A stretch of DNA of 64,000 nt, taken from positions 56,088 to 120,087 of the forward strand of contig DATIJN010000140.1 of assembly GCA_035478615.1 (NCBI GenBank), in the 5' to 3' direction. Below, piece after piece: positions 3,222 through 56,636 of the stretch. Below the pieces are notes generated by a model that did not search any database, had not been told where the DNA came from, and worked only from the letters and a program-made list of their open reading frames with translations. Position numbers and translations under genes: made by a program. Every line of letters begins with the position of its first letter. Positions within the stretch are counted from its first letter, which is position 1. This DNA is from Candidatus Saccharimonadales bacterium. GTDB lineage: Bacteria > Babelota > Babeliae > Babelales > Chromulinivoraceae.

Positions 3222-3243
3222 TTATTATTTTAATATATATATA

Positions 3244-3516
3244 TTAAAATAATTTACGCGGTTTTATATGCATTAAAATATCATCAATCGTATCATATAC
3301 ATTGTTTATGTCACTAATGTCGTAAACATCTTCATATCCATCAATCTCATTAACAAATGAAATTTCAAAATGATAATAATCATGAATAATGTTGATTTGG
3401 TAATTTGTCCATATGACATTGATTTGATTAAAATAATGAAAAACAGTTGGTTTTATTTCATATAAATCATATATACGTTGTTTGATATAGTTTTGAATAC
3501 GATATGTCATTGACAT
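3244..3516 (-). CDS. Hypothetical protein
   Basis: ATG ORF of 90 aa that does not overlap its neighbours. Confidence 0.45.
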   Translation of the reverse strand: MSMTYRIQNYIKQRIYDLYEIKPTVFHYFNQINVIWTNYQINIIHDYYHFEISFVNEIDGYEDVYDISDINNVYDTIDDILMHIKPRKLF

Positions 3517-6487: not shown

Positions 6488-7078
6488 ATGAATAATTTGC
6501 AAGAATCATTAAAAAGATTAATCGCGGAAGACGCGATGACAATCAGTTCGTTAGAACTGCTCCTATCACCCGCGCCAATTTACATTCAAAATCCCACATT
6601 CTTAACCAATATTGTTGACGTTATCAACATTATTACGAAGGATAGGGATAATGATCAAAAATTTACCATCAATGATTTAATTGTATTAAGTAAAGATTTG
6701 GCCGCTTTATCAACATTGATTACCACAATCGTATTGTTGGTCAAATCATTGCCTGATATCAAATTAAATTATAAAGAACAAGATACCGAAGAATTTATTT
6801 ACAAAATTTTGGTATATATCTTTTTGGTTATTTTACCAACTAAAACGACAGTACAATTATCACAAGATGATAAATTAAACATTTTAAACGTATGCAATTT
6901 GATTTATGAATTTTTAATTCATTCTGGTTTATTAAAGGAAATTGTTAAAAAAGTAGCAGCATGGTTTAAGAAAGAGGTAGTAGTGTGTATTACATGTATT
7001 ACAAGTATAAGAAATAGACAAAGTGTTGTAGAGTCTAAAATGCCAAAATTAAAAGCACAATTATCTATGCGTATATAA
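6488..7078 (+). CDS. Hypothetical protein with hydrophobic segments
   Basis: ATG ORF of 196 aa. Confidence 0.5.
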   Translation: MNNLQESLKRLIAEDAMTISSLELLLSPAPIYIQNPTFLTNIVDVINIITKDRDNDQKFTINDLIVLSKDLAALSTLITTIVLLVKSLPDIKLNYKEQDTEEFIYKILVYIFLVILPTKTTVQLSQDDKLNILNVCNLIYEFLIHSGLLKEIVKKVAAWFKKEVVVCITCITSIRNRQSVVESKMPKLKAQLSMRI

Positions 7079-7106
7079 TATATAATTTATGATTCATAAT
7101 TATATA

Positions 7107-7943
7107 TTATATAAATATCTCAATATAAGTTAATTTTTGTAAAATAAGCCGTTCAATTTCCGGCGGCAATGCACTCAGTGGGTTGTGAGACAAATACAAT
7201 TGTTGTAAATGATGTAATTGACCCATTTCAGGCGGCAATGCACTCAGTTGGTTGTAAGTCAAAACTAAACATAGTAAAGCACTCAACTGACCGATTTCTG
7301 GAGGTAATGCATTTAGTTGGTTGTTTGACAAATACAATTGTTGTAAAGCCTCCAATTGACTGATTTCCGGCGGCAATGCACTCAGTTTGTTGTTTGATAA
7401 ATTCAATGTGTGTAAATGACTCAGCTGACCGATTTCCGGCGGCAATGCACTCAGTTGGTTGTTAGACAAATCCAACGTTTGTAAAACACTCAGCTGACCC
7501 AATTCCGGAGGCAATGCACTCAGATGGTTATATGACACATACAAATATTGTAAATTAATTAGCTTACCGATTTCCGGCGGCAATGCACTCAGTTGGTTGT
7601 ATGACAATGACAATAGTTGTAAATTAATCAAATGATCTATTTCGTGTGGCAATGCACTCAGTTGGTTGTGAAACAAATTCAAGTATTTTAAATGACTCAA
7701 CTGGCTAATTTCCGGCGGCAATACACTTAGTTTGTTGTTATGTAAATATAATTTTTGTAAATCACTCAGCTGGCAGATTACCGGAGGCAATACACTCAAT
7801 TTGTAGTTATGTATATCCATTATTTTACTCTGGTAAAGATGATCAATGGATTTATTTATATTTAATTTAAATTTTAAGTTTTCAAGTTGATAACATAATT
7901 TGATTAAATTTAGCCATGATTGATCGGATTTAAAACAAGACAT
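7107..7943 (-). CDS. Leucine-rich repeat protein (LRR body of a split F-box-LRR gene)
   Basis: About 9 tandem 23-aa units of the form LSALPPEIGQLSxLQxLxLSNNQ. The N-terminus MSCFKSDQSWLNLIKLCYQL aligns to residues 54-76 of the intact paralogue at 19878-20873. Confidence 0.7.
   Translation of the reverse strand: MSCFKSDQSWLNLIKLCYQLENLKFKLNINKSIDHLYQSKIMDIHNYKLSVLPPVICQLSDLQKLYLHNNKLSVLPPEISQLSHLKYLNLFHNQLSALPHEIDHLINLQLLSLSYNQLSALPPEIGKLINLQYLYVSYNHLSALPPELGQLSVLQTLDLSNNQLSALPPEIGQLSHLHTLNLSNNKLSALPPEISQLEALQQLYLSNNQLNALPPEIGQLSALLCLVLTYNQLSALPPEMGQLHHLQQLYLSHNPLSALPPEIERLILQKLTYIEIFI
7133..7781 (-). repeat. 69-nt coding tandem repeats (LRR units)
   Basis: Periodic ggcggcaatgcactcag... blocks visible in the DNA. 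Confidence 0.85.
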
Positions 7944-9362: not shown

Positions 9363-9971
9363 ATGTATCGTCATCTACTATTAAATCATTTACGATCAAG
9401 CCCGTATTACGAGTGTGATTATGATATACAAAATCGTAATGACATTATACATATTTGCAAACAACAACTTTATCGTTCACAACATGGTGAACATTGTAAA
9501 GCATTTATAAATATATTACATTTACTAGGTGTTCGCGGAGAATGTCATCATGAGCAATATGGTCGTGATGACTCGAAAAATGCATTGATCAGTATCATTA
9601 TCAAACACTTATCGGATATTATTAAAGATAATGAACAATCAGATAATAAACAACCTGAAAAACAAGTAGAAAAACAAGTGGATACAAAAATTGATAAACA
9701 AGTACCTTTGGATAAAACGGAAAAAGATAAAGATAATCATAATTTATTTAATATTAAATTGGAAAAGCCTGAAGATTTAGAAAAATTCGTATCCCAAACA
9801 ATCAATCTCATTTCTCCACAAAATGAACAATTACATCAATTGACCAATAGTTTGATGAAGATTTTTTTATCACCACAATCATCACAATCATCACAAACTG
9901 AAAATAAAACAACAACGTCGGATAAAACACAGCAAATTTTGGAAGAGGTGTTGAATCAACAAGAATTGTAA
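9363..9971 (+). CDS. Hypothetical protein with low-complexity Lys/Gln/Ser-rich C-half
   Basis: ATG ORF of 202 aa. Confidence 0.45.
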   Translation: MYRHLLLNHLRSSPYYECDYDIQNRNDIIHICKQQLYRSQHGEHCKAFINILHLLGVRGECHHEQYGRDDSKNALISIIIKHLSDIIKDNEQSDNKQPEKQVEKQVDTKIDKQVPLDKTEKDKDNHNLFNIKLEKPEDLEKFVSQTINLISPQNEQLHQLTNSLMKIFLSPQSSQSSQTENKTTTSDKTQQILEEVLNQQEL

Positions 9972-10002
9972 TTATTAAAATTTTAATAAATTTTAATATT
10001 AA

Positions 10003-10749
10003 ATGGGTGCTAGTATATCAACAAATTCAGTTAATTCAATGATTAGTAATAGTATTGATGTATTGAATACGTATGCACAAACTTGTGCTGTAAGTGGCAC
10101 AGGAGCACAAAATCAAATTATACTCAATGGATGTACATTAAAAGATGGTAGTAAAATTGATATATTGAATCAACAAGTCGTAAGTCAAAGTTGTATTACC
10201 AATGCAAATACACAAGTGGCTATATCATCGAGTGTGTCTCAGACAATGAGACAAGCTGCACAAGCTATTACACAACAATTTAGCTTCCCATCCATTGCCT
10301 CAGCGAATAATTTTATTCAAGATAGTATTACACTGGGTGATTTTATCAGTAATACTTATAACAGTAATTGTTCAACAAATATATCGCAAGGTAAAAATGA
10401 AATTGTTTGTAATGATAGTACGATTGATAATTCAATTATTCAAATTGAAGATTTTCAATCTGTCACACAACAATGTATTTTAAATGCGATAAGTAATTCA
10501 TCCATTTATAACACGGTGGTTAATGACTTACGACAAACGAGTGTTGCTAAACAGCAAGATACATTTGCAGCCATATTAGGTGTTATTGCTCTATTTTTAG
10601 CTATCGGTGCATGGTTCGTCATATCCATTGCACGTACTGATGCTGCGAAATGGCTTGTTGTATTTTTAGTTTTATTTTTTGTCCTGTCAAGTGTTATTTA
10701 TACAGCAACGGCTAAAGAACGTGGTAACTATCCTTATACTAAAGCTTAA
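10003..10749 (+). CDS. N-myristoylated membrane protein, poxvirus L1R/F9L-like
   Basis: Starts MGASIS (Gly2 myristoylation context), has conserved Cys pairs and a C-terminal pair of hydrophobic segments. This architecture fits the NCLDV core lipid-membrane protein. Confidence 0.55.
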   Translation: MGASISTNSVNSMISNSIDVLNTYAQTCAVSGTGAQNQIILNGCTLKDGSKIDILNQQVVSQSCITNANTQVAISSSVSQTMRQAAQAITQQFSFPSIASANNFIQDSITLGDFISNTYNSNCSTNISQGKNEIVCNDSTIDNSIIQIEDFQSVTQQCILNAISNSSIYNTVVNDLRQTSVAKQQDTFAAILGVIALFLAIGAWFVISIARTDAAKWLVVFLVLFFVLSSVIYTATAKERGNYPYTKA

Positions 10750-11422
10750 ACAATGACAAATTAGATTTAACCAAATTAAGGACGTGAATCAATGATTCAA
10801 AGTTGATATTTCCGTATTCTTCTAATATAAACAAGCTATATGGATCTAATTTATTATCAGTATAAACAGATAATGTTAATTCAAAATTAGGCTGTCTAGA
10901 AACATTAACATATTGACGTTTATTAATATAAACATCAATACCTATTTTATATTTATACGTAAATCCATATTTATCCAATTCTGCGTATAATATTTTAAGA
11001 TCAATATGTCCTCTGTCATTAGGAACACTTGAACGATTTTTTATCATACTCTCCCATCGATATAATTTCACCCATCCATTAAAATTTTTTGGTTGACGTG
11101 TGATTGGTAGATTGTCATGTTTGAATTTGTTTATCCAAAATGTATCATCACACAATAACATTAATTCTTTATTGGATGTACAAGTGTTAACTATAGTATT
11201 GATATCGCTTAGGATTAACGTTTCAAACAACATGTCATTTGGTAAAATTGATATTGATTGATTCTTTTTACTTTCTAAGCGTCGCAACTCTGTACGTAAA
11301 CTATATAAGTCTTTTTTTCCTAATTTTTCTACAATTTTTTTCTCAGACAAGCCATTGTACATCTTATATTGTTTTAAATTTTTCAAAACATCTGAACGTT
11401 TTAGAATGGATATATTATCCAT
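10739..11422 (-). CDS. SAP-like + F-box-like family protein (paralogue of 46865-47722 and 59208-60032)
   Basis: Shared N-terminal block (KxYNGLS...K...L) followed by LPNDMLFETLILSDINTIVNTCTSNKELMLLCDDTFW. Confidence 0.55.
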   Translation of the reverse strand: MDNISILKRSDVLKNLKQYKMYNGLSEKKIVEKLGKKDLYSLRTELRRLESKKNQSISILPNDMLFETLILSDINTIVNTCTSNKELMLLCDDTFWINKFKHDNLPITRQPKNFNGWVKLYRWESMIKNRSSVPNDRGHIDLKILYAELDKYGFTYKYKIGIDVYINKRQYVNVSRQPNFELTLSVYTDNKLDPYSLFILEEYGNINFESLIHVLNLVKSNLSLFKL

Positions 11423-11466
11423 TTATTTTATATAAAATGATTATATTTAATAAAAATTAAATATAA

Positions 11467-11685
11467 ATGGATGAATGTCATATGTGTCATGATAAAATAC
11501 ACCTGTATTACTGTATTCGTTGCAAACATTATTATTGTTCGTCGCACTTTCAAGTGCGATTGTACAACATTTATTGCGTTCATTGTGAATTAGACCAATT
11601 AAGTGACAAGATGCAACATGTTCATATTACAAAAAACAATGACATGGATATGTTGTGCGATAACATGACAAATATTAAACTTTAA
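11467..11685 (+). CDS. Small zinc-finger (B-box-like) protein
   Basis: CHMCHDK...YYCIRCKHYYCSSH...CVHC. Confidence 0.4.
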   Translation: MDECHMCHDKIHLYYCIRCKHYYCSSHFQVRLYNIYCVHCELDQLSDKMQHVHITKNNDMDMLCDNMTNIKL

Positions 11686-12622
11686 CAACTTCAAACAATA
11701 AAACATTGGCATTTTGATAAGGCGGGAATAAATTATCTGCTGGTAAATGATTCATGATTGGTACATTGGGTTGTAATCCTTGAGTTGGATCACCGTTTAC
11801 CCACGGATTAAATGTACCATTGCTACTACAATCAACACATCCGGTAGCTAATTTTAAATTATTTTGACCAAAATTAGCTCCCCATGGTCTTACCGATATA
11901 ATACCATCATTAGGTTGTGTGGTGGTGTTTGGATTTAATGAATTTACACCACTAACACCACTAGAACATGATGGAAATAATATAAAATACAAATTGGGAT
12001 AGTTTGTTGGCAAAAAATAAACCAACAAATCACTTTCAAACCAGCTACAATTAGAACTTGATCCATCATAACCAATCACTGCAGGTGTTGTACTATAACA
12101 CAAACCTGAAAAGCCTTCATTTAACCGTTGGTATCGTAAACGACCAGTAGGATCCGATGGATTATTGCGATTTTGTAAATAAAACCTGTTACCTAAACCA
12201 TAGACAAGGCTTTGGTTCGCATCACACCCTCCTGGAACTCCTTCACATTGTGAAGCTGATGAAAATTGATTTAAAATCCATTGACTGCGTGTATTACTTT
12301 TATCACCTGTAAATGTTACAGCATAAGCGTTTGGTCCATAATCATAAGGTATTAAACACGGTTGTCCAGCATTACTTAACTGAATTGTGGCACTTTGTTC
12401 CAAATATTGATTTATATTATCACCAGATAATATCGCTGGACGTATGACAACGGTATCACCATAATTAAACGGAGAGATTGGGTAATTATTAGCAAGTTGT
12501 TGTTGTAATATATAGACAATAATAGCTACCGCGCCGACTAATAATACAAATACCAATACGGATGTACTTATTGAACCTGTACTCGTTGATGAATTTATTT
12601 TATCTATATCTGTATCTGACAT
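11675..12622 (-). CDS. Type II membrane-anchored Cys-containing protein
   Basis: N-terminal hydrophobic anchor (VLVFVLLVGAVAIIVYIL) followed by a Gly/Asn/Ser-rich ectodomain. Confidence 0.55.
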   Translation of the reverse strand: MSDTDIDKINSSTSTGSISTSVLVFVLLVGAVAIIVYILQQQLANNYPISPFNYGDTVVIRPAILSGDNINQYLEQSATIQLSNAGQPCLIPYDYGPNAYAVTFTGDKSNTRSQWILNQFSSASQCEGVPGGCDANQSLVYGLGNRFYLQNRNNPSDPTGRLRYQRLNEGFSGLCYSTTPAVIGYDGSSSNCSWFESDLLVYFLPTNYPNLYFILFPSCSSGVSGVNSLNPNTTTQPNDGIISVRPWGANFGQNNLKLATGCVDCSSNGTFNPWVNGDPTQGLQPNVPIMNHLPADNLFPPYQNANVLLFEVVKV

Positions 12623-21173: not shown

Positions 21174-22400
21174 ATGGCTTCAAAACAAAAATTAAAGGAT
21201 GATGTTATTTATAAAAAAAAACAACATGAAAATGAATTACGTCATTTGATTTATCAAATATACGAAGGTATGACTGATAAAAATCATCACCCATTTATTA
21301 AAAATATCAAAAATCCAAAATCCTTATTAACAAGCCTTATAAAATTACACAATATGATTGGATTAGATGATATTAAAACATCCATTGCTAAACAAACTAC
21401 TTTTTTAATAAACAAATTAAATAAGGGTGATTTAAGTATGAAAATGTTAAATACAGTTCTTATGTCCGGACCTGGTACTGGGAAGACAACTGTAGGTATA
21501 TTGATGGCCGAAATATGGCATCATTTGGGGTTTTTAGATTTAGCTAGCAAAAATAATAATCAGTTATCTTTATTTTCTAAATTATCACATTATAACGAAG
21601 AAGTATTACAACTTTATGCAATCATGTTATTATTCGCAGCGAGATTAATATATCATGAGTTTTTACAACCCATGTATGTTAAATACGGTAATAAACTTAT
21701 TATCGGTATGATTGTGTTAATCACGACTGTCATTATTTTACTATATACGAATAGTGATGCATTGTTATTAACCAATCATAATCAGTCCATCATCACAATT
21801 ACTAGTCGTTCTGATTTTGTAGACATTTATTTAGGAACAACGGATAAAAAAACAGAAAAATTGTTAAGAAATAATATTGGTAAAGTGGTTTTTATTGATG
21901 AAGCGTATTCATTATATTCAGGACCGCAAGATATTTACGGTATGGAATGTTTAACTTGCATTAATAAATTCATGTCCGAACATGAAAATGAAATTGTTAT
22001 TATTTTTGCTGGTTATGAAGAAGATTTAAAAAACACGATATTTAAAGCACAAAAGGGACTAGCGCGGCGATGTATGTGGCATTTCAAATTGGATGATTAT
22101 AGTATCGAACAACTGTTCGACATTTTTGAACAAAAATTAAAAGATGAACATTTATCCATTTTAAAAAAAGACTATAATAAAATTAAAGATTATTTTGTCA
22201 ACAACAAAGATGCTTTTGTTTATGCTGGCGGTGACGTTGAAAAATTAATCTTTTTTTGTCAACTTAATCAAAATCAGTGTGACGTTGTTGATTATAAAAC
22301 CATAAAATGCGGTATTAAAGAATTGTATAAAAATAATCAAAAATTGATTAAAAATGATCATGATTGGTTACAAAAATTGAAGGAATTAAAAAATGTTTAA
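21174..22400 (+). CDS. AAA+ ATPase, CbbX/SpoVK-like, with hydrophobic insertion
   Basis: Walker A SGPGTGKTT; Walker B VVFIDEAYSL; FAGYEEDL and GLARRC downstream. An insert of about 84 aa lies between Walker A and B. Confidence 0.75.
   Translation: MASKQKLKDDVIYKKKQHENELRHLIYQIYEGMTDKNHHPFIKNIKNPKSLLTSLIKLHNMIGLDDIKTSIAKQTTFLINKLNKGDLSMKMLNTVLMSGPGTGKTTVGILMAEIWHHLGFLDLASKNNNQLSLFSKLSHYNEEVLQLYAIMLLFAARLIYHEFLQPMYVKYGNKLIIGMIVLITTVIILLYTNSDALLLTNHNQSIITITSRSDFVDIYLGTTDKKTEKLLRNNIGKVVFIDEAYSLYSGPQDIYGMECLTCINKFMSEHENEIVIIFAGYEEDLKNTIFKAQKGLARRCMWHFKLDDYSIEQLFDIFEQKLKDEHLSILKKDYNKIKDYFVNNKDAFVYAGGDVEKLIFFCQLNQNQCDVVDYKTIKCGIKELYKNNQKLIKNDHDWLQKLKELKNV
22373..22380 (+). promoter_or_regulatory. 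AAAATTGA upstream of the FNIP gene (second copy at 22340-22347)
   Basis: Exact octamers starting 53 and 86 nt before the ATG at 22426, inside the 3' end of the AAA+ gene. Confidence 0.35.
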
Positions 22401-22413
22401 TTAAACATTTTTT
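22388..22413. terminator. 26-nt palindrome, module copy B
   Basis: Identical to 19840-19865; contains the AAA+ gene stop codon. Confidence 0.55.
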
Positions 22414-22425
22414 AAATACAAAAAT

Positions 22426-23529: not shown

Positions 23530-24609
23530 TTACGCTATTAAAATAAAAGAAACCGTGGTAGACGCTGTATTGGTTGTACTACTATTTGGCGGTACTGTTA
23601 AGGCAGTAGGTCCATTACCAGAAGAAGCACATACGGCTAAAAAAGATCCAGAGGCAGCAACCACCAAAGCATCACCCACAATTTGAGATGTACCTGTGGC
23701 TCTACCTACATTACTATAAGTCAATGCGGTCATACCTACCAAAGTAGTCCCATAAAACAAAGTCATACCGCCATCCTCATTGATAGTAGCTTGAAATACT
23801 ATTTTATAAATTCCTGCAGTAGGAAGCGTAAACACTGTCCCAGATGCTGTAAAAGGACCTTGAATAGCAGTTGTCACGGTAATACCTATACCATTAACCA
23901 CTGTTCCTGAATAGGTAAAGGGTTGTCCAGAGGCAACTGTGGCTGGTTGTGACCCTGATTGAAAAAATTGAGAAGCACTTACTAATGACCCGGTCGGACC
24001 AGTGGCACCTAATGAACCGGTTGGGCCAGTGGCTCCTACACTTCCTTGTAATCCAGCAGGTCCAGTGGCACCTAATGAACCGGTTGGGCCAGTGGCTCCT
24101 ACACTTCCTTGTAATCCAGCAGGCCCAGTTGTTCCTATTTGTCCTGTAGGTCCTGTTGCTCCTACATTTCCTTGCAATCCAGCAGGCCCAGTTGTTCCTG
24201 TTTGTCCTGTAGGTCCTGTTGCTCCTACAATTCCTTGTACCCCAGCAGGCCCAGTTGTTCCTGTTTGTCCTGTAGTTCCTGTTGCCCCTACAATTCCTTG
24301 TAACCCAGCAGGCCCAGTTGTTCCTGTTTGTCCTGTAGGTCCTGTTGCTCCTACATTTCCTTGCAATCCTGCAGGTCCAATTGGTCCTGTTTGTCCTGTA
24401 GGTCCTGTTGCACCAGTATTAGAAGCGGTACCAGCAGGACCAGTTGGACCAGTTCTTCCAGTCGGTCCAGTTGGCCCTGTTGGACACTTACATTTTTTAT
24501 GTTTATGACATTTCTTCTTTTTATGACATTTCTTTTTGTGACAATGTCTGTCATTGTCATGGCATGGATCACATTTTGCTTCTTTAAGACATTTTGGACA
24601 GTCACACAT
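23530..24609 (-). CDS. Collagen-like protein with Cys/His/Lys-rich N-terminus and C1q/BclA-like C-terminal domain
   Basis: About 55 uninterrupted G-X-Y triplets. N-terminus is [41 protein letters not shown]. The C-terminal non-collagen beta-rich domain contains [16 protein letters not shown]. Confidence 0.8.
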
Positions 24610-24711: not shown

Positions 24712-27560
<2,849 letters not shown>

Positions 27561-43748: not shown

Positions 43749-43765
43749 TTTTGTATTATAATAAA

Positions 43766-45259
43766 ATGTTTAAACAAGATGATATAAAAAAAATAGAATA
43801 TGACCATATTGAATATCAAATACGATTCAACGACATGAATCGTACCCAATTTCAACACATGATAAAACATATTCAAAATCCTAACACGACCATATCAACC
43901 AATTATTACGATGTTAAAAATAATATTAAAAAAACCTATTTATTAACTGAACAAAATGAAGTAGAACATGAAACAATTCACTTTTATTGTAAAAAAACAA
44001 TACATACTATAAATCACCCCGATTATCCAATTTCTTTGTTGGTTCAACAAAATCAACCCACGATGGAAACGGATGATTTATCGTTAACGATAAATAAAGA
44101 TAAATTAAATTATCATTATATCATCAATGATGATATTACCTTAATATTATCTGAAACGACAATGGATATGATGACCACGTATCATATGAAAATACAATTT
44201 AAAAACACAGATTCATTAACTATTGTGAATGAAATGATTGTCAATCTATTGATGATGATGAATAATACAGAAGTATTGTATACAGAACATGAGCGGTTAT
44301 CTATGATTCATGATTGTTGCCATGCATTAAAAATACCATTATCTAACGATTTAGACAATGTATTTGTCAAATTACAACACATCAAATTAACTGATATCAA
44401 TCAGTTAACTGGTACATACGTTGTATCAAACAAAGCCAAAGGTACTCGTACATTACTTATATTTCATCATACAGGTATTTGGCTCGTTAAACCTAAACAA
44501 CCTTATCATTATAATTTGTTGTTAAAATATGATGATAATCATCTTTACCGTTATTTGATTAATTCTTGGCAATTAACCATTTTTGATGGCGATATCATAA
44601 AACCGTTAAACAAAACAGATTATGAATTTAACTACCGATATTGGTATTTAGCACATGATTGTTTAGTATTTAATCATCATGACATACGACATATGACATA
44701 CGATAAACGTATTGATTATGCTAAAACATGTCAAAAATTAATCACTTGGTATATTGAAGATGAATTTTTATGTTTTAGTTTAAAATCAACGCGTGGATTC
44801 ATTGCTGGAGATGCTGATATGGTTGATAAAATCAAATACATTATGACGATAGGCGAGGTGTTGAATTATGAACATACAGGTCTTGTTTTTACACCAAATA
44901 GTCAATATGATAATAATAAAACATATAAATTATATTACCCATCCCAAATTACTATTGATTTTGCTATCTATGATTCGGGAAATCCGAATCAGTTGAAATT
45001 ATACGTTTATGATCAAGAAAAAATGCAAGATGTGGAGTTTGTTGGTACACAACAACTCCCGTTTGACGAATCAATGATTTTACACTCATCTTTGATGCCT
45101 TATTATAATAATAATAAAATGATTGCTGAATGCCGCTGGGATCAAGTTTTAAACAAAATGGTATTTGTCAAAATAAGATCAGATAAATATGAACCAGATG
45201 ATATTAGATTAGTGATTGAAAATTGGCAAAATATCAATGATCCGATTATTGATTGTTAA
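43766..45259 (+). CDS. Degenerate paralogue of the capping-enzyme triphosphatase-guanylyltransferase module
   Basis: Collinear with residues 1-500 of ORF 51794-56551 (VVSNKAKGTRTLLIFHHTGIWLV vs VIAHKADGERHYLIYNPIGIWLV; ITIDFAIY..LKLYVYD vs ITIDFEIV..INLYVFD; IENWQNINDPI vs ESNWHDIHDPI), but catalytic residues are replaced. Track start 43751 is TTG; ATG is at 43766. Confidence 0.6.
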   Translation: MFKQDDIKKIEYDHIEYQIRFNDMNRTQFQHMIKHIQNPNTTISTNYYDVKNNIKKTYLLTEQNEVEHETIHFYCKKTIHTINHPDYPISLLVQQNQPTMETDDLSLTINKDKLNYHYIINDDITLILSETTMDMMTTYHMKIQFKNTDSLTIVNEMIVNLLMMMNNTEVLYTEHERLSMIHDCCHALKIPLSNDLDNVFVKLQHIKLTDINQLTGTYVVSNKAKGTRTLLIFHHTGIWLVKPKQPYHYNLLLKYDDNHLYRYLINSWQLTIFDGDIIKPLNKTDYEFNYRYWYLAHDCLVFNHHDIRHMTYDKRIDYAKTCQKLITWYIEDEFLCFSLKSTRGFIAGDADMVDKIKYIMTIGEVLNYEHTGLVFTPNSQYDNNKTYKLYYPSQITIDFAIYDSGNPNQLKLYVYDQEKMQDVEFVGTQQLPFDESMILHSSLMPYYNNNKMIAECRWDQVLNKMVFVKIRSDKYEPDDIRLVIENWQNINDPIIDC

Positions 45260-49447: not shown

Positions 49448-50650
49448 ATGAAACCTGTTACATTAATCAGTGGTATTAATAACATGTCTATTTTTTATTA
49501 TCAAAACAAAAAATTTTACTTTTTTGGTGATTTACATGAACAAAATCAACACAGTTGTGATCAAGAATACGCGTGCGATTATTTTAATTATGATTTTTCA
49601 CATGTTGAAACACATGGTTCATCATGTACAACCATCGGTCCTTTGTTATTTTATTGGTTTAACTATAATAATGCAAATGGGATTCATACTGATTTTTTGT
49701 TTGAAGAATCCTATACGAAAAAAAATGAAAGACAATACTATCAGTATTTTAAACAAATTGTTGATATTAGAAAATCTCAACACGTCAATGTTTTATCGAC
49801 GATATTTCCGCGCAAAGATATGAGTTGGTTAGCATTAACGGGTGCTCTATTACAACCATGTTTATATAAAAATAAGGACAAATGTAAATATCAGTATGTT
49901 CATATGCACAATGTCGATATCAGAGCGTTAGAAGGGGAAAAAGTGAGTCCATTTTCTCTCATTTTCCTCGAAGAGGAATTGCAGTCATTTTACCCACCCG
50001 ATATTAAAGATGAACTTATATTCATTGTAAAAACATTATTATATCGCTATCGTGATATTATTAAAGCGTTGGTTGATGATTATGATGACGATTTAAAAAC
50101 CATCTACGATGATTTATTTAAATCGTTATATTATCTAAAACCGATTTATCAACAACAGGTAAACTTAATGAAACAAATGTATATTAATAATACACATATC
50201 ATTGCGACAGAATTAAAAAAATTAAATTCAGGAATTAGACATAACATCATTAATTTCATCCTTCATTTATCCGATGATTACATCAAACCCATCATTGATC
50301 AATTTGATCAATGGATTAATAAATGGTTTTACTATTTCGACAATGAAACACCCGATGAACAATTGAATACCTTAACTTTATTACTAACAACATATATGAA
50401 TCATTTTACCGTTTTAGCTGCCTATACTATGGATATTTATGTTTTATGTAAGTTGTTTTTAGCGGAAGGTGATGATGTTATTGTTTATACCGGCGCATAT
50501 CATATTGAAGTTTATAATTTGTTTTTTAAACAATTGACTGAACCTATTTTTGAATCAAAAACATATGAGCATCGCAAATGTATTCAATTTGATCAATTAC
50601 CAAAGTATTTAAATGTGAATCAATTTCGTGAATTTTATTATATTATTTAA
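49448..50650 (+). CDS. Hypothetical protein
   Basis: ATG ORF of 400 aa. Confidence 0.5.
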   Translation: MKPVTLISGINNMSIFYYQNKKFYFFGDLHEQNQHSCDQEYACDYFNYDFSHVETHGSSCTTIGPLLFYWFNYNNANGIHTDFLFEESYTKKNERQYYQYFKQIVDIRKSQHVNVLSTIFPRKDMSWLALTGALLQPCLYKNKDKCKYQYVHMHNVDIRALEGEKVSPFSLIFLEEELQSFYPPDIKDELIFIVKTLLYRYRDIIKALVDDYDDDLKTIYDDLFKSLYYLKPIYQQQVNLMKQMYINNTHIIATELKKLNSGIRHNIINFILHLSDDYIKPIIDQFDQWINKWFYYFDNETPDEQLNTLTLLLTTYMNHFTVLAAYTMDIYVLCKLFLAEGDDVIVYTGAYHIEVYNLFFKQLTEPIFESKTYEHRKCIQFDQLPKYLNVNQFREFYYII

Positions 50651-50686
50651 TATAACATATTAGTACTATGCTAATATGTTATATTA
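50648..50686. terminator. 16-bp stem hairpin, copy 1 of a motif reused at 51265
   Basis: taatataacatattag-tactatg-ctaatatgttatatta. Confidence 0.5.
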
Positions 50687-51755: not shown

Positions 51756-51793
51756 TTATAATTATAAATATAAATATAAAATTATATTTATAA

Positions 51794-54700
51794 TTAAATC
51801 TTATGAAATAACCAGCAAGGTTGTGGATTTTTCGGTTGTTTATTATTATCAAATTCAGTATAACTAATTACTCCTAAAAATTCAGCATCGTCATGAATAT
51901 CAATGAAAATATCGACCATCTGTTCAGTATAGTTTGCTACATCTTTTATATCGTTAATAATAATCACCATGTGTCCGTTTTTATCTAAAACGTCCCACGA
52001 TTTATTAAGTGAAGCGATTAAGAAATCATCAAACCATGTATTTAAATCACGATTAAAAATGGATTGTGTTTCTTCATCTGTATATACTTCTAAATTGAAG
52101 TAAGGCGGGCTTGTTATAACGAGGTCATATGTCGTATTCTCTGGTAATATAGCGGTTTCAAACGATGATTGTATCATGATCAATTTATTTTTATCAATAC
52201 CAAAATGGTTAATGATGTCTTGATATTTTGGATGTAAACAACTGTTTGGATCAACGCCAACATACAAATCTACCCCAGCAGCCATAGCACCAATCAGTCT
52301 ATCACCCCATCCTGCTGAAAAATCAAGGATACGATGTGCCTTAAACATTTTAATAAATCCAACCACGATTGTTGGTCTGAAAGAGGTTACTTCGCCAGCA
52401 AGTCGATATATAGCTTCACGTAAACTATATTGACTTGTATTATGGTACCATTCTTGTGATTTTTGATAAACAAAATCCTTATTTTGTTGCCAGTAATCAT
52501 ATGGACTTAATGGTTGATCATATCGACGTGCTTTCATGCGACATTCATCGACAAAATAATCCGAAATGAGATTATATTTCAAATAATCTTCAGATTTGTT
52601 ATTAATTAATAAATGATTATATTTAAATTTTTTATTGATGTACCAATCACCTGTAATATTACGTATCGTATATGGCATGCGCACTGTTGTAAACTTGTAA
52701 TTTTTTAAATTTTTAAAACGTTTATCAATATCAAAAACATTGATACTGTATTTTTTATAGGGAAAGTCATCATACGGACTTTGAAAAACTTGATAGTAAA
52801 GACGCTGTGGATTATTATTTTGATAATAATCAAGGTAAATGGATTTAAGTTGATGTTTTGAAAATAGAGCGTCAATTTGTTGTTTTGTCATTAAATGAAG
52901 CGGATCTTCTTTTTCCTTTTCTTTTACATACCAAAATAGATGGATGAGTTCGATAAATTGTAAAAATGCATCAGTTTGATCGTCATCGTGTTCACGTATG
53001 ATAACAATCCCTCCAGGCATTAAAATACGCGCAACCTCATTCATGATGTGTAATCTATTGTCTGGTGGTATATGATGTAATACAGCAAACAATAATACAA
53101 CATTGACACTTTTATCAGGTAATGGAATATTTGAATTATCATAAGTTAAAACGGTCACATTATTTAATGTTGGTAATTTTTGATCAATCGCGTAAACATT
53201 TGATTTGTTTAAATGGTAGTATTCAGCCACAGCTGATACAATATCACCTTTTCCAGCACCAATATCAATTAATATCATATCAGATGTATTAAAATTTAAT
53301 GTTTTTAATATTTTATCAACACTTTTAACGCGGTCTTCAATACGCTCAGCCGATTTTGTTTTTTTTGTTAAAACCAATGAATTGAGCAAATTTTCTAAAT
53401 CTTGTTCAGGTTGTACGGAATTAAATAACATTTTAACCTTGGATAAAATATCAATAGGACTAGTATCGTAATGTTTTTTGATTGTATTGACTAATGCATG
53501 AACATAAAAATCAGATGGTGCATATAAATTGGATAACATTTCAAAAATAGGTTCATCAGATGGGATTAATGTTGATAAATCAATTTTTTGCTTATTAATC
53601 AAATTGATTAATTGATGATCAACGTGAACTTGATCAACATTCACTTTTTGTTTCAGTTTACTAATTAAATCGTCATTGTTGTCAAACAATGTTCTAATAC
53701 CTTCATCTTCTTGACTACCAATGACTTCGTAATGATTATTTAAATTTAATAATAATATGCTATATTTGTAAATATAGCTGTCATCACATTGATAGGTTGA
53801 TTTATATAATGTTAAATCTTCATCGTAAGTAAATAAAACAATATCAATCTGAATGAGATAAGATACTAAACTTAATAAATCATCGAGCGGTTGATTGGAT
53901 TGTAAATACCATTTTAAACCTGATAATGTGTAATCTTTTATCAATATTATATCGCCTTGGTTGATATAATTTAAAACTTGTTGTAATAATAGTTCAGCAA
54001 ATTGTCCATGATTGTAATTAATCCACACTTCTTTTGTTAATTTAGATGACAATTCAATCCTAAATTGTTTAATCAATGCGCTGCGTGTGATGGCGTCGGT
54101 TTGATTTTGATAATCTTCAGAATAGGCCATTAAAATCGCTGATAAAAATGAGTTATTTTTATCATTAACCGTACCTATTCTTACCATGTGTTTGTGTAAT
54201 AATGTATTAATGGGTTTGATATCGTTATTGGCTAGTGGTGATAGGCGATTAAAAACAATCATGGGATATTGAATATCAGGTAATTGTATATTATTTTTAT
54301 CGACAACAATATCTTTTATTTTTTGATAATAACCATAGGTGAATAATGATGAATAGGTTTTAGCATCATCGGATAATAACAATTCATCAGTTGCCCATCG
54401 TTGCTCAATTAATTCGATACCAAATTGACGTAATTTTTTAGTCAATAAAGGTAATGTCACTAAAAATTCCCATTGTTTATCAACAATGCCAGAAATTTGC
54501 GCACGCACAAATTGATTATCGTACAATGTAAATTGAGCATCATTTAAAATTAATGTGTCATGTTGTTTTAAATACGGTAGTAGTTTATCACCATCAATCG
54601 AAAAAAACACAATATAACCCCCCACTGCTAAATTATTGGCTATCGTGTTAGCAAGCGCTTGGACATGTTTATCCGATGCCCAGAAAAAAGATAATGATAA

Positions 54701-56551
54701 CATTAACGAGATGACATCAACTTTAGATTTAATAGTATTGGTAATAAGCTTCGTATCTTCACCCGTTGTATTGATTGTCACAACTTTATCAGCTAAGGCT
54801 GTTTTTGACAGCCTTTTTAATAATTCATCCAAATTTTTAGCGTTCGGTTCAACAGTAAAAACTTTTCCTGCTCCCGATTGGATCCATTTTTGAATATCAC
54901 CTCCTTTTCCCCCACCAATATCAAGTAACATATAATGATGTTTTATTTTTAATTGATTAAAATGAGGATATGGTGTTACAAGGCCATATAACAACTTTTT
55001 AATTTGATTATGATATTTTTTAACAAATTCTAATGTATCACCGATCAAGTCACTTTTTAATATCGGATCATGGATATCATGCCAATTTGATTCAGCGATA
55101 TCTAATTGATTGGGCCCTGATTTATCATGGCGTATTTTAAGCGGTTTTAATTTATGACAAAATTTGTCATAAAACGTTTCCACAATTTTATGATGATATA
55201 GCTGATAATCATCATAAAATGATTGATCAATCATATCATCCGATATTGGATAAAAGGGTACTTTTTTGTTTGTTTTCGTATCAAATACGTATAAATTAAT
55301 TTGTTGCTGATTATTTTTAACAATTTCGAAATCAATGGTTATTTTATGCGGTGGTTTCCACTTGCAAATATCAGGATAATTTAATAACTTTCTCTTAGAA
55401 AGAGGAAGTGTATGACTGTTATAATTGTAACGATTTGTTGGCGTGATGATAAAACCATCTTGTGGATAGGGTAATAAGAGTTGTTCCTGAAACAATGTTT
55501 TCATGACGTTATAAAACCCATTTAATGTGATTAAATGGGTTTCTTTTTTAACAAATTCATACAACATTGTTTTATCAACAATGGTATTAATATGATCACT
55601 GCGTGATTGTAAAGTATCATGACGTATATCTTGATCGTGGTAAATCAAACAATCATAAATCAATACATAATAAGTTACACCATTAATATCTTTAACCACT
55701 TCACATTCGTAAACATCTAATGATTTATAAATAGCAACAAGACGCGATGATGGTACTAATAAATTAAAATAATTTGATGATACTAACCAAATACCGATTG
55801 GATTATAAATTAAATAATGTCTTTCACCATCCGCTTTATGAGCAATGACATAATTTGTGATGGTGTTATTCACTATACCACCATTGATTAAATCAATATA
55901 TTTAATGTTTCTCGCTTTGGTTAAAATATCTTTACTCAAATGTTTAAGTCCTTTGAAACCTAAGATGGTATTCATTTGATTAATCAAATGATCAATATCA
56001 CGTTTTAATACAAAATTTTCCGATTGATTTATAATTTTATAAATGTATAAAATGGATTGAATAAAATTTTCAAAATGAAAATTTTTAATATCACCAATAT
56101 ATTCAAGTTCAATTTCGTAGGGTTGTTTTTTATTCATAACCATGGTTAAATCGGCGCGATAATGTTTATGAATCATGAATTGATGGCGTAATCGGTGTCT
56201 TGTGTGTATTGGCGAGCCTAAAGGATTATGGTTTAGTAATTTTGTTTCTTCACTGATACTGACAACAAATCCATATACATTTAAATAACGTGAATCATCT
56301 TTGATGCGTACTTTTTTCTCAAATGTCGATTCATTTTTGGTGACAATTTGCCTTACATGATCAGTAAATTGATATACGGTTGATTCTTCAAAAATCTCGT
56401 CAAAATGTTGTTGTAAATGTTTTAATAATAAATCATAGATTGAATGAATTTTGTATTCCGGTGTAATTTTAAATTTGACCTCAATTTCCAAATGGGACAA
56501 GTCTGATGGATTAATCGATACATCCGATAACAATTCATCAAAATTCAACAT
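51794..56551 (-). CDS. mRNA capping enzyme (TTM triphosphatase + guanylyltransferase + cap N7-methyltransferase) fused to an OTU-like module and two additional SAM methyltransferase domains
   Basis: HLEIEVKF (res 20-27) and YEIELE (145-150); HKADGER (K239), QDGFIITP, CKWKPPHKITIDF; MLLDIGGGKGGD (541-552); NDKNNSFLSAIL (796-807) ... NNHYEVIG (938-945); ILIDIGAGKG (1093-1102) + VVLLFAVLHHIP + MPGGIVII; ILDFSAGWG (1408-1416) + LVITSPPY (1477-1484). Confidence 0.85.
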   Translation of the reverse strand: MLNFDELLSDVSINPSDLSHLEIEVKFKITPEYKIHSIYDLLLKHLQQHFDEIFEESTVYQFTDHVRQIVTKNESTFEKKVRIKDDSRYLNVYGFVVSISEETKLLNHNPLGSPIHTRHRLRHQFMIHKHYRADLTMVMNKKQPYEIELEYIGDIKNFHFENFIQSILYIYKIINQSENFVLKRDIDHLINQMNTILGFKGLKHLSKDILTKARNIKYIDLINGGIVNNTITNYVIAHKADGERHYLIYNPIGIWLVSSNYFNLLVPSSRLVAIYKSLDVYECEVVKDINGVTYYVLIYDCLIYHDQDIRHDTLQSRSDHINTIVDKTMLYEFVKKETHLITLNGFYNVMKTLFQEQLLLPYPQDGFIITPTNRYNYNSHTLPLSKRKLLNYPDICKWKPPHKITIDFEIVKNNQQQINLYVFDTKTNKKVPFYPISDDMIDQSFYDDYQLYHHKIVETFYDKFCHKLKPLKIRHDKSGPNQLDIAESNWHDIHDPILKSDLIGDTLEFVKKYHNQIKKLLYGLVTPYPHFNQLKIKHHYMLLDIGGGKGGDIQKWIQSGAGKVFTVEPNAKNLDELLKRLSKTALADKVVTINTTGEDTKLITNTIKSKVDVISLMLSLSFFWASDKHVQALANTIANNLAVGGYIVFFSIDGDKLLPYLKQHDTLILNDAQFTLYDNQFVRAQISGIVDKQWEFLVTLPLLTKKLRQFGIELIEQRWATDELLLSDDAKTYSSLFTYGYYQKIKDIVVDKNNIQLPDIQYPMIVFNRLSPLANNDIKPINTLLHKHMVRIGTVNDKNNSFLSAILMAYSEDYQNQTDAITRSALIKQFRIELSSKLTKEVWINYNHGQFAELLLQQVLNYINQGDIILIKDYTLSGLKWYLQSNQPLDDLLSLVSYLIQIDIVLFTYDEDLTLYKSTYQCDDSYIYKYSILLLNLNNHYEVIGSQEDEGIRTLFDNNDDLISKLKQKVNVDQVHVDHQLINLINKQKIDLSTLIPSDEPIFEMLSNLYAPSDFYVHALVNTIKKHYDTSPIDILSKVKMLFNSVQPEQDLENLLNSLVLTKKTKSAERIEDRVKSVDKILKTLNFNTSDMILIDIGAGKGDIVSAVAEYYHLNKSNVYAIDQKLPTLNNVTVLTYDNSNIPLPDKSVNVVLLFAVLHHIPPDNRLHIMNEVARILMPGGIVIIREHDDDQTDAFLQFIELIHLFWYVKEKEKEDPLHLMTKQQIDALFSKHQLKSIYLDYYQNNNPQRLYYQVFQSPYDDFPYKKYSINVFDIDKRFKNLKNYKFTTVRMPYTIRNITGDWYINKKFKYNHLLINNKSEDYLKYNLISDYFVDECRMKARRYDQPLSPYDYWQQNKDFVYQKSQEWYHNTSQYSLREAIYRLAGEVTSFRPTIVVGFIKMFKAHRILDFSAGWGDRLIGAMAAGVDLYVGVDPNSCLHPKYQDIINHFGIDKNKLIMIQSSFETAILPENTTYDLVITSPPYFNLEVYTDEETQSIFNRDLNTWFDDFLIASLNKSWDVLDKNGHMVIIINDIKDVANYTEQMVDIFIDIHDDAEFLGVISYTEFDNNKQPKNPQPCWLFHKI

Positions 56552-56590
56552 TTGTATTATATGAAATAAATTATTAAATTTTAATCATTA

Positions 56591-56619
56591 TTTATATGAC
56601 TATTAAATAGTCATATAAA
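56591..56619. promoter_or_regulatory. 12-bp stem palindrome in the capping-enzyme head-to-head spacer
   Basis: tttatatgacta-ttaaa-tagtcatataaa. Confidence 0.3.
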
Positions 56620-56636
56620 TTTTATTATTATAATAA

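Follow-up and report, generated by a model that had tools for sequence, protein, structure and literature searches.

The Mimivirus capping enzyme R382 (MimiCE; TPase structures 2qy2/2qze) carries a TTM triphosphatase, a guanylyltransferase and an N7-methyltransferase, in this order, in one chain. Its length of 1170 aa (PMC10578482) confirmed the value of about 1170 aa given for the trifunctional enzyme in an earlier reading of the present locus from its letters (the sequence-only reading). Capping enzymes followed by an OTU domain are also already known, and public records carry the name 'mRNA capping enzyme with OTU-like cysteine protease'; the metagenomic giant-virus proteins of Marseillevirus LCMAC102 (A0A481YUA0) and Pithovirus LCPAC404 (A0A481ZCB2) have this order. 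The class I enzymes Tgs1/MimiTgs and PCIF1 have motif I before an (S/D/N)PP(W/F/Y) motif IV, which is SPPW, the catalytic motif, in hTGS1 and DPPW in MimiTgs (PMC2709555). An OTU fold and cap-forming enzymes are likewise joined in one polypeptide in tymovirus-like and betaflexivirus-like replicase polyproteins. There, the OTU domain actively processes the polyprotein and also acts as a deubiquitinase, next to capping domains of alphavirus-like type.

A single ORF encodes a multidomain capping enzyme

The window, that is, the whole stretch of 64,000 nucleotides that was analysed, contains the features listed in Table 1. The uninterrupted ORF of the sequence-only reading was borne out, with start, codons and stop all present, and lies on the minus strand, which had not been stated. 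Each quoted motif was found at its residue in the translation, and all six modules were real: TTM triphosphatase (TPase), guanylyltransferase (GTase), N7-methyltransferase, OTU fold and two further methyltransferases, MT2 and MT3. NCBI entry HSW76996.1 is exactly the same protein. Seventeen further full-length relatives (1388–1617 aa, 48–53% identity), obtained from independent assemblies (NCBI, ENA, JGI, Logan), aligned end to end with the window protein, and the fusion order was kept in 18 sequences. On balance, the gene probably encodes the principal enzyme for mRNA capping in an AT-rich giant virus (Nucleocytoviricota) as one chain of 1585 residues, in which MT2 and MT3 are read as further cap methylation. 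Compared with R382, the window protein has the same order of the first three modules but exceeds it by 415 residues and has MT2 and MT3 in addition. The relationship between the two is distant: a phmmer search with the complete window protein gave no match to 2qy2 at E<=1. As for an OTU fold in R382 itself, R382 was absent from the top 50 BFVD fold matches of the OTU module.

Table 1. Features of the capping-enzyme locus, with positions in the window
Feature	Residues	Position	Strand	Basis
Complete ORF, multidomain mRNA capping enzyme		51794..56551	minus	ATG, 1585 codons plus stop; ORF list, translation
TTM RNA 5'-triphosphatase	1-225	55877..56551	minus	Profile match to 2qy2; acidic strands
GTP-RNA guanylyltransferase	226-505	55037..55876	minus	mRNA_cap_C; nucleophile K239 in KADG
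Cap guanine-N7 methyltransferase	506-744	54320..55036	minus	PF03291; motif I LLDIGGGKGGD
OTU fold, putative pseudo-protease	757-970	53642..54283	minus	AlphaFold and Foldseek; hhalign
Linker and N-terminal lead-in of MT2	971-1069	53345..53641	minus	Mostly helical, poorly conserved
MT2, class I Methyltransf_11/23/25 type	1070-1262	52766..53344	minus	Pfam; motif I LIDIGAGKG
MT3 N-terminal subdomain	1263-1392	52376..52765	minus	FPYKK...RYDQ...LRE..Y; pLDDT about 80-90
MT3 catalytic domain	1393-1585	51797..52375	minus	AlphaFold pLDDT 84.9, pTM 0.86; Foldseek
Perfect 15-nt inverted repeat, 8-nt loop, overlapping the stop codon		51759..51796	.	Candidate transcript 3'-end hairpin; repeat search

The two acidic strands of the TPase (HLEIEVKF, residues 20-27, and YEIELE, 145-150) contain five invariant glutamates, E22 and E24 in LEIEVKF and E146, E148 and E150 in YEIELEY. 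A TPase profile built from 12 clade members matched the mimivirus capping-enzyme TPase 2qy2/2qze/3bgy (E=3.6e-7), with both acidic strands aligned to 2qy2, and S. pombe Pct1 4pn0 (E=2.5e-4), while the Pfam match to PF02940 was sub-threshold (0.005). The GTase showed KADG (239-242), DGFIITP (365-371), KWKPPHKITIDF (397-408), CKWKPP and RHDKSGPN. K239, D241, G242, D365, G366, K397, K399, R474 and K477 were invariant and D476 was nearly so; Pfam mRNA_cap_C spanned residues 414-503 (1.6e-6), and PF01331 was annotated on homologues. The N7-methyltransferase, with MLLDIGGGKGGD at 541-552 in its motif I region, was matched by PF03291 over residues 510-671 (1.8e-10) and by Ecm1 1ri1 and human RNMT in the PDB. 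It was the most conserved module, with a mean pairwise identity of 0.64. Together, TPase, GTase and N7-methyltransferase would follow the canonical pathway from pppN-RNA to cap 0 (m7GpppN).

Related capping enzymes and the sister clade

The sequence-only reading had counted the OTU segment among the extensions of the trifunctional enzyme; it is, however, not special to this protein. Most relatives, at about 1000–1250 aa, consist of a capping enzyme plus OTU, and MT2 plus MT3 is the only clade-specific addition. Among the 150 best representative OTU-profile matches, 103 of the 141 new proteins also had a capping region, and a Foldseek search of BFVD matched capping-OTU proteins of metagenomic giant viruses with E from 5e-13 to 7e-9. 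The relatives P0019, P0025, P0026, P0028, P0032 and P0367, among others, have the same capping-then-OTU order as the window protein. However, all these capping-OTU proteins, those of the metagenomic giant viruses included, keep a DG(S/N)C Cys box and an HY(E/D) His box and end after the OTU, whereas the window clade lost the nucleophile and gained both methyltransferases.

A sister clade, P0017 (1528 aa) and P0018 (1952 aa), shares the capping region, a Cys-less pseudo-OTU and MT2 with the window protein, at 39–40% identity from TPase through MT2 (alignment A1; 40–42% by BLASTP). Its C-terminus has a PCIF1-like domain with NPPY (PF12237, 4e-28) instead of MT3, and P0018 has an additional domain of the FtsJ 2'-O-methyltransferase type (3.6e-18).

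The second and third methyltransferases

Similarity to known folds continued past residue 750, where the OTU fold, MT2 and MT3 were all found. The linker before MT2 had no match in the Pfam scan and a mean pairwise identity of 0.35, and its part up to residue 1010 was helical in the AlphaFold model of residues 745-1010. MT2 carries ILIDIGAGKG (1093-1102), D1123, VVLLFAVLHHIP (1151-1162), MPGGIVII (1178-1185), LHHIP and an invariant REH-D and H..WY cluster. It was matched by Methyltransf_23 (5e-18), _25 (5.5e-17) and _11 (1.2e-16) in Pfam. MT2 also occurs as a stand-alone family of 250–360 aa, and one stand-alone homologue lies two genes away from the gene of an 840-aa capping enzyme. We infer that the MT2 target is not a K-D-K-E type 2'-O-methylation.

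The family of MT3 is a large one of stand-alone methyltransferases from giant viruses, with 761 members at E<=1e-3 and 100% query coverage in most of the 120 matches listed. In these stand-alone proteins, the N-terminal subdomain (mean pairwise identity 0.63) and the catalytic domain always occur together. The catalytic domain carries ILDFSAGWG (1408-1416, within motif I ILDFSAGWGDR), motif II GVDPN and LVITSPPY (1477-1484), in which motif IV is TSPPY with S1481 and Y1484. The canonical motif of the family is [ST]-[SCA]-P-P-[YF]; in the fused clade, the first proline was often swapped (TSFPY, TSMPY, TSTPY) and motif I was variable at its last glycine, which may reflect relaxed catalysis. Apart from this glycine, the SAM-binding motifs of MT2 and MT3 were largely preserved. 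Both are real methyltransferases and as conserved as the N7-methyltransferase (0.60–0.63 against 0.64, with MT2 at 0.60).

The kinship of MT3 with Tgs1 or PCIF1 that its motif IV had suggested was not supported. The Pfam scan gave no match to PF09445 or PF12237, and neither Tgs1 nor PCIF1 was among the PDB entries matched by the profile at E<=10 or among the 50 best fold matches; when MT3 was aligned by hhalign to the sister clade's module, which is genuinely PCIF1-like, the probability was 0.2%. MT3 shares the class I fold and the motif order with Tgs1/MimiTgs and PCIF1 but has no family-level similarity to them, nor a specific one to any other cap methyltransferase, and has its own 130-residue N-terminal subdomain.

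Possible roles of MT2 and MT3

The domain composition suggests that the window protein may methylate the 5' end of viral mRNA beyond cap 0. MT2 and MT3 would act on the cap itself or on the nucleotides transcribed first, with the 5' end still held by the enzyme. The MT3 target would most likely be an exocyclic amine, either N6 of an adenine next to the cap or N2 of the guanine in the cap, because motif IV is S-P-P-Y. The hypermethylated cap proposed in the sequence-only reading is plausible; it is supported by the domain fusion and by the sister clade, because PCIF1-like and FtsJ domains stand there at the place of MT3. This demonstrates that C-terminal positions of the enzyme do serve to accommodate methyltransferases that modify the cap.

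Alternatively, MT2 and/or MT3 could have a small molecule or a protein (e.g., of the virion or of translation) as substrate and be fused for co-expression or co-packaging only. Consistent with this, MT3 weakly matched PRMT1 and PRMT3 (1e-3 to 3e-2), MT3-family proteins were repeatedly fused to GNAT acetyltransferases, as was the full-length homologue P0013, which is also compatible with a protein substrate, and stand-alone MT3 genes had no capping-gene neighbours at the loci examined. The MT2 profile matched only generic type-11 methyltransferases in the PDB (best 3dh0, 2.6e-8), e.g., phosphoethanolamine N-MTase. However, the conserved fusion order and the undisputed cap-modifying domains at the same position in the sister clade argue for the cap, and Foldseek placed MT3 among class I RNA or small-molecule methyltransferases (E about 1e-8), the best being mostly RNA methyltransferases (MnmM, aTrm4, aTrm11, METTL5). 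We consider non-cap substrates unlikely.

It is improbable that MT3 is a DNA N6-adenine or N4-cytosine methyltransferase fused by chance, although NCBI names one family member a DNA methyltransferase (compare the database name 'site-specific DNA-methyltransferase') and PF01555 is precomputed on many members. The N6_N4_Mtase match in Pfam (0.02, 15.3 bits) was below the threshold of 26.7. The Thermus modification methylase 2zie, a DNA N4/N6 methylase and, with PRMT1, the best PDB sequence match, aligned around SPPY (1e-4) over only about 78 residues. Moreover, MT3 has motif I before motif IV, opposite to the beta-class order of PF01555/2zie, and its partner in the conserved fusion is an RNA-end-modifying enzyme.

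The OTU module

The AlphaFold model of residues 745-1010 (pLDDT 84.4, pTM 0.80) and homology to intact modules identified the OTU-like segment as a true OTU fold. All of the top 50 Foldseek PDB matches were OTU deubiquitinases, the best being OTUD2 4boz (3.3e-6), and hhalign against Cys/His-intact OTU modules of capping enzymes, one of which exceeds the Pfam OTU threshold, gave a probability of 99.6% (E=9e-25). In this alignment, S801, within NDKNNSFLSAIL (796-807), was placed on the catalytic Cys, as had been proposed, and H940, within NNHYEVIG (938-945), on the His. The codon of S801 is TCA (54149-54151), and that of H940 lies at 53732-53734. Cys and His were both intact in 139 of the 177 OTU module matches and in none of the window clade, whose members show S, D, N or H at 801 and either H, Q, K or G or a gap at the site of the His. 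The whole clade is without the catalytic Cys, and the pseudo-protease reading is therefore the best one. The domain descends from a seemingly active cysteine protease/deubiquitinase of many related capping enzymes by loss of the nucleophile, and may have been retained for a non-catalytic role, as a spacer or for docking.

In some relatives with a papain fold, Ser can serve as the nucleophile, and in the window protein a Ser, a His and an acidic residue stand at the canonical positions. A serine-type triad Ser801-His940-Glu942, making the module a self-processing protease or a deubiquitinase, is nevertheless very unlikely. H940 and E942 were kept in the window protein but not clade-wide. The residues found at 801 are typical helix N-cap residues, and the predicted helix begins exactly there; the OTU is also the least conserved folded module (mean pairwise identity 0.37), and nothing resembling a conserved cleavage site stood out between the domains, short of a systematic search. 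BFVD fold matches of the OTU included the replicases of Lentinula tobamo-like virus and Darwin betaflexivirus; compared with such replicases, the window protein has an OTU without a nucleophile and shows no sign of processing.

Single-chain status and hairpins near stop codons

A merger of several genes by assembly error or frameshift, which the sequence-only reading had raised, is excluded at the level of sequence data because the 17 full-length relatives come from independent assemblies in four archives; one relative on a 209-kb contig is likewise one single gene, a hairpin lies directly past the stop codon, yet two shorter palindromes lie inside the GTase-coding part, and no supporting point was found, the only short 'MT2-MT3' protein (P0041) being truncated by its contig end. 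The window contained 23 perfect palindromes with stems of at least 13 nt, against 0 in five Markov controls. Seventeen of them were in non-ORF DNA, which makes up 16% of the window, and 12 were within 40 nt of an ORF stop.

The capping gene is a single gene, almost certainly on a viral contig

The capping ORF ran from an ATG start through 1585 codons to a stop, as checked in the ORF list and the translation. Its product can be divided into TPase (residues 1-225), GTase (226-505), N7-MTase (506-744), OTU-fold (757-970), second methyltransferase (MT2, about 1070-1262) and third methyltransferase (MT3, 1263-1585) modules. All of the motifs quoted in the sequence-only reading were found in the translation at the residues given for them. 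The G+C content of the window was about 28%, and the window carried hallmark giant-virus genes, encoding a VLTF3-like factor, MutS, collagen-repeat proteins and an F-box/LRR protein. An identical protein is deposited at NCBI as HSW76996.1, a "methyltransferase domain-containing protein" of Candidatus Saccharimonadales bacterium, on a contig of 158,632 bp. With a giant-virus gene set in the window, the contig is almost certainly viral and was mis-binned.

Sixteen sequences of 1388-1617 aa (P0001-P0016), from NCBI, ENA, JGI and Logan assemblies, were retrieved when 5.8 billion proteins were searched. Their identity to the query was 43-51% over 98-100% by BLASTP and 48-53% in the alignment of full-length relatives. 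The merger of several genes by a frameshift was rejected, because these 16 relatives came from separate archives, P0001 was a single gene within a 209-kb contig, and the stop codon of the capping ORF was overlapped by a perfect 15-nt hairpin at 51759-51796. The sole short protein consisting of MT2 and MT3 (P0041, 491 aa) was likewise rejected as a split-gene variant, since its gene was cut by the contig end.

The first three domains form a predicted cap-0 core

The assignments of the TPase, GTase and N7-MTase domains were solid. In TTM RNA 5'-triphosphatases the tunnel is lined by two beta strands rich in glutamate, an ExExK strand towards the N-terminus and an ExExE strand towards the C-terminus, and both strands bind metal. 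The corresponding strands LEIEVKF (E22, E24) and YEIELEY (E146, E148, E150) were invariant in 19 sequences, and in the window clade (the window protein and its full-length relatives) they aligned with LEFEVSF and YELELE of the mimivirus TPase structure 2qy2. A profile of the first 232 residues matched the mimivirus TPase (2qy2, 2qze and 3bgy, E=3.6e-7) and S. pombe Pct1 (2.5e-4) in the PDB, with both acidic strands aligned, while the single sequence reached only a sub-threshold 0.005 with Pfam PF02940. The domain therefore belongs to the Cet1/Pct1/MimiCE type (MimiCE being the mimivirus trifunctional capping enzyme), both by its glutamate strands and by its similarity to characterised members.

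Guanylyltransferases are recognised by a KxDG motif I with the lysine nucleophile, by motifs III, IV, V and VI, and by a C-terminal OB domain. The motifs KADG (K239), YDCL (D300), DGFIITP, CKWKPP and RHDK were invariant or nearly so in the alignment of relatives, PF03919 (mRNA_cap_C) scored above threshold (1.6e-6) and PF01331 was recorded on homologues, which places the domain among the mRNA guanylyltransferases of the covalent nucleotidyltransferase group. The third domain is a cap N7-MTase: PF03291 matched residues 510-671 with 40.9 bits against a cut-off of 26.6 (E=1.8e-10), and motif I (LLDIGGGKGGD) was largely invariant. These families convert pppN to ppN, then to GpppN through a lysyl-GMP intermediate, and finally to m7GpppN. 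By family knowledge, domains 1 to 3 would thus make cap 0.

The OTU module has lost its catalytic nucleophile

Direct sequence scans gave no support for an OTU domain: Pfam and NCBIfam scans of residues 680-1070 returned no OTU match even at E<=10, and a 19-sequence profile of the module returned no match among PDB sequences. The assignment was instead made from structure prediction and intermediate sequences. The AlphaFold model of residues 745-1010 had a pLDDT of 84.4 and a pTM of 0.80, and its first helix began exactly at S801. When this model was searched against the PDB with Foldseek, all of the top 50 matches were OTU deubiquitinases, the best being OTUD2 (E=3.3e-6; target-normalised TM 0.5-0.6), and the matches included yeast Otu1, nairovirus vOTUs (among them the CCHFV vOTU), OTUD1, A20, Cezanne and OTULIN. 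The predicted structure thus settles residues 745-1010 as an OTU fold, although the Pfam model PF02338 itself did not recognise the window protein.

Five distant capping-enzyme homologues (P0019, P0025, P0026, P0028 and P0032) carried the same module after the N7-MTase with intact Cys (DGSCLIHA) and His (HYE) boxes, and the P0026 module scored 23.6 bits with the Pfam OTU model, above its gathering cut-off of 23.3 (E=8.1e-5). A profile-profile comparison of the window-clade modules with the Cys/His-intact modules gave a probability of 99.6% (E=9e-25) and aligned S801 with the catalytic Cys of the intact modules and H940 with their catalytic His. Together with the fold matches, this alignment showed that the earlier reading of NDKNNSFLSAIL and NNHYEVIG as OTU-like boxes was correct.

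The nucleophile itself was missing, and the catalytic His was not conserved across the clade. At the N-terminus of the first helix, where the D-G-x-C box holds the nucleophile, S801 aligned to the Cys, and this position was S, D, N or H in the window clade. These four are classical helix N-cap residues. At the second box the window protein had H940-Y-E942, but the position was H, Q, K, G or a gap across the clade. Among 177 module matches in the proteins collected here, 139 kept both Cys and His, and none of these belonged to the window clade or to its sister clade (P0017 and P0018). A sequencing error at codon 801 was rejected, as TCA needs two changes to reach a Cys codon. Of the folded parts of the protein, this module had the lowest conservation (mean pairwise identity 0.37). 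From the clade-wide loss of the Cys-His pair, the distance of TCA from a Cys codon and this low identity, we concluded that the module is a probable pseudo-protease retained for a non-catalytic role; its persistence after loss of the nucleophile in the window clade points to a role other than proteolysis.

The OTU module is not an extension peculiar to this protein. In 1.84 billion representative proteins, the OTU-module profile had 1958 matches at E<=1e-3, of which 1132 reached E<=1e-10. Among the best 150 matches, 103 of the 141 new proteins also matched the capping-core profile; these were mostly 1000-1250 aa long with the OTU module C-terminal, compared with 1388-1617 aa for the form fused to MT2 and MT3. 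Two BFVD entries, from Marseillevirus LCMAC102 and Pithovirus LCPAC404, were already named "mRNA capping enzyme with OTU-like cysteine protease", and the BFVD fold matches of the OTU model included the capping enzymes of Orpheovirus and Pithovirus sibericum (E from 5e-13 to 7e-9 for capping entries). By these counts and entries, the OTU module is the common state in such enzymes. Neither the capping core nor its fusion to OTU is new; the fusion is known from database names, and a literature search on OTU and capping enzyme found no paper discussing it. Giant-virus capping enzymes widely carry an appended OTU domain that is essentially uncharacterised. The same fold was also matched within BFVD proteins annotated as "VETF-like early transcription factor large subunit", which come from genomes of pithovirus-, marseillevirus- and iridovirus-like type, so OTU domains seem to have been attached repeatedly to the giant-virus transcription machinery.

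MT2 and MT3 are conserved methyltransferases of different families

Class I SAM methyltransferases of this group share a GxGxG motif I and an acidic motif II. MT2 belongs to the Methyltransf_11/23/25 group, with Methyltransf_23, _25 and _11 scoring 65.8, 62.7 and 61.6 bits, respectively, each above its cut-off (5e-18 to 1e-16). Its invariant residues were DIGAG (motif I), D1123, LHHIP, and a cluster of R-E-H-x-D and H..WY. A profile of MT2 against the PDB matched only generic type-11 enzymes, so its substrate was not indicated. PF01728 (FtsJ/RrmJ 2'-O-MTase) reached 16.9 bits against a cut-off of 24.1 and covered motif I only (1080-1126), and the invariant residues do not suggest a K-D-K-E tetrad. 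Stand-alone MT2 proteins were 250-360 aa long, with about 40 close relatives. One stand-alone homologue (8001-8759 on contig L004) lay two genes away from the gene of an 840-aa capping enzyme (9495-12017), and another lay two genes away from an XRN 5'-3' exonuclease gene (contig L003, 11208-14153).

The AlphaFold model of MT3 (pLDDT 84.9) showed a class I fold behind a 130-residue subdomain. Its fold matches were generic, the best being RNA methyltransferases (3eey, MnmM, aTrm4, aTrm11 and METTL5; about 1e-8). MT3 has the amino-methyltransferase type of motif IV, and the catalytic motif of hTGS1 is SPPW (PMC2709555). The kinship with Tgs1 or PCIF1 proposed for MT3 was not supported. Neither PF09445 (Tgs1-type cap guanine-N2) nor PF12237 (PCIF1-type cap-adjacent adenosine-N6) was found on the window protein, no Tgs1 or PCIF1 chain appeared in the MT3 profile search of the PDB at E<=10, and the resemblance to Tgs1 was limited to the four-residue SPPY. 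Separately, P0031 was dropped as a Tgs fusion: PF09445 stood in its precomputed list, and on rescanning the match lay only on the N7-MTase motif I (553-604).

A search for the MT3 family returned 761 proteins at E<=1e-3, and most of the listed matches covered 100% of the 323-residue query with 35-66% identity. MT3 is a member of this family, which includes the Satyrvirus protein P0133, by its N-terminal subdomain and the motifs SxGWGDRL, GVDP and SPPY...QS; the stand-alone giant-virus "FPYK...SGWGDR...SPPY" methyltransferases have no curated name. In a 27-sequence alignment, motif I (SxGWGDRL) and motif IV ([ST]-[SCA]-P-P-[YF]) were strongly conserved. Members of the fused clade often had another residue at the first proline of motif IV (TSFPY, TSMPY, TSTPY); the window protein has TSPPY. 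No capping or RNA-processing gene was found near stand-alone MT3 genes in two long Satyrvirus contigs (L001 and L002). A GNAT acetyltransferase was fused to eight stand-alone MT3-family proteins (P0081, P0083, P0094, P0097, P0098, P0114, P0128 and P0158), and one was also N-terminal in P0013, a full-length capping homologue.

MT2 and MT3 were conserved at the level of the N7-MTase (mean pairwise identity 0.60-0.63 vs 0.64), which argues that both are working enzymes.

MT2 and MT3 as putative cap modifiers

The sister clade, P0017 (1528 aa) and P0018 (1952 aa), kept the TPase, GTase, N7-MTase, pseudo-OTU and MT2, with 39-40% identity in the alignment of full-length relatives and 40-42% by BLASTP. 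In the place of MT3, these proteins had a PCIF1-type domain with an NPPY motif (PF12237, 6e-26 and 4e-28, respectively), and P0018 had an additional FtsJ-type domain (3.6e-18). The PCIF1 and FtsJ types are families of cellular cap-adjacent m6Am and ribose 2'-O-methyltransferases. Because these domains occur in the sister clade, the C-terminal end of the capping enzyme appears to be a slot that has repeatedly recruited cap-modifying methyltransferases. Up to four methyltransferase domains were thus present in one capping enzyme of the sister clade. Homology of MT3 to the PCIF1-like module that takes its place was rejected by profile comparison.

From domain fusion and analogy, the best reading is that MT2 and MT3 are cap modifiers. 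The two domains may instead act on a protein or DNA substrate. In the PDB, the best matches of the MT3 profile were a Thermus N4/N6 DNA methylase (1e-4, in the SPPY region only) and PRMT1 (1e-3). MT3 does not belong to the beta class of DNA N6/N4 methyltransferases: PF01555 scored 15.3 bits against a cut-off of 26.7, and ILDFSAGWG at 1408 precedes SPPY at 1481, opposite to the beta class, in which motif IV (DPPY) comes before motif I.

If MT2 and MT3 are cap modifiers, the architecture suggests that, after cap-0 synthesis, the nascent 5' end would be handed along the chain, MT3 would methylate an exocyclic amine (at N6 of an adenine next to the cap or at N2 of the cap guanine), MT2 would contribute one further methyl group, and the role of the dead OTU would be that of a spacer or docking domain. 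We regard this picture as a whole as reasonably probable. A more specific version is tentative, and possible rather than probable: MT2 and MT3 would each be a novel type of cap or cap-adjacent methyltransferase, and with the N7 domain they would let one processive chain put several methylations on the 5' end, for example m7G with N6-methyladenosine or N2-methylguanosine and a further base or ribose methylation. The dead OTU would then be a scaffold that passes the 5' end from the cap-0-forming to the modifying domains. If so, by Rosetta-stone logic, hundreds of stand-alone MT2-like and MT3-like giant-virus genes would be cap-modifying too.

We came across no earlier account of a Cys-less OTU combined with two extra methyltransferases, nor of the sister form that bears PCIF1-like and FtsJ domains. 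The fusion is a first functional lead for these two orphan giant-virus families, of 761 MT3-like and about 40 close MT2-like sequences. Giant-virus capping enzymes serve as models and as reagents for capped mRNA; a natural single chain with three methyltransferase domains would be a compact means of making modified caps and a way into the "self" marking of viral mRNA.

Hairpins and neighbouring genes

The whole window contained 23 perfect palindromes with stems of at least 13 nt, compared with none in five Markov-shuffled controls. Non-ORF DNA makes up 16% of the window and held 17 of the palindromes; for 12 of the 23, an ORF stop was no more than 40 nt away. The arrangement is reminiscent of the "hairpin rule" that governs the 3' ends of mimivirus transcripts (PMC4402537). 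The two palindromes inside the capping ORF may be due to chance or may give rise to internal transcript ends. The lineage cues diverge: the hairpins suggest mimivirus-like transcription, whereas the best OTU fold matches were pithovirus and marseillevirus-like entries.

Positions of the capping gene, palindromes and neighbouring genes in the window
Feature	Position	Strand	Description
Capping enzyme ORF	51794..56551	-	
Palindrome	3224-3253		
Palindrome	7072-7113		
Palindrome	22386-22415		
Palindrome	50648-50686		
Palindrome	51759-51796		
Internal palindromes	55185-55220, 55514-55542		In GTase-coding part of capping ORF; perfect 13-nt stems, e.g. AAACCCATTTAAT/ATTAAATGGGTTT
Palindrome	56590-56620		In 85-bp divergent intergenic region upstream of capping gene; perfect 15+15 nt (ATTTATATGACTATT/AATAGTCATATAAAT)
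Stand-alone TPase-GTase paralogue	43751-45259	+	27% identity over 319 aa, E=1e-25; Pfam mRNA_cap_enzyme 3e-7
NUDIX-domain protein, 251 aa	57402-58157	-	1.4e-4; about 850 bp upstream of capping gene, same strand
Collagen-triple-helix-repeat protein	23530-24609	-	5e-25
Collagen-triple-helix-repeat protein	25800-27560	+	1.3e-29; at local G+C peak of 43% (26-28 kb)
MutS homologue, 922 aa	31824-34592	-	Domains I, III and V

In the stand-alone paralogue, KADG was changed to KAKG, DGFIITP to TGLVFTP, CKWKPP to YKLYYPS, LEIEVKF to IEYQIRF and YEIELEY to YHMKIQF. These changes make the catalytic motifs look degenerate, and the protein may be a pseudo-capping enzyme that has no activity. The NUDIX protein is a candidate decapping enzyme, and a divergently transcribed ORF of 161 aa lay between its gene and the capping gene. 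The MutS homologue could aid phylogenetic placement of the virus. Immediately next to the full-length homologue P0001, an AlkB-like 2OG-Fe(II) oxygenase was encoded (contig L006, 10714-11658).
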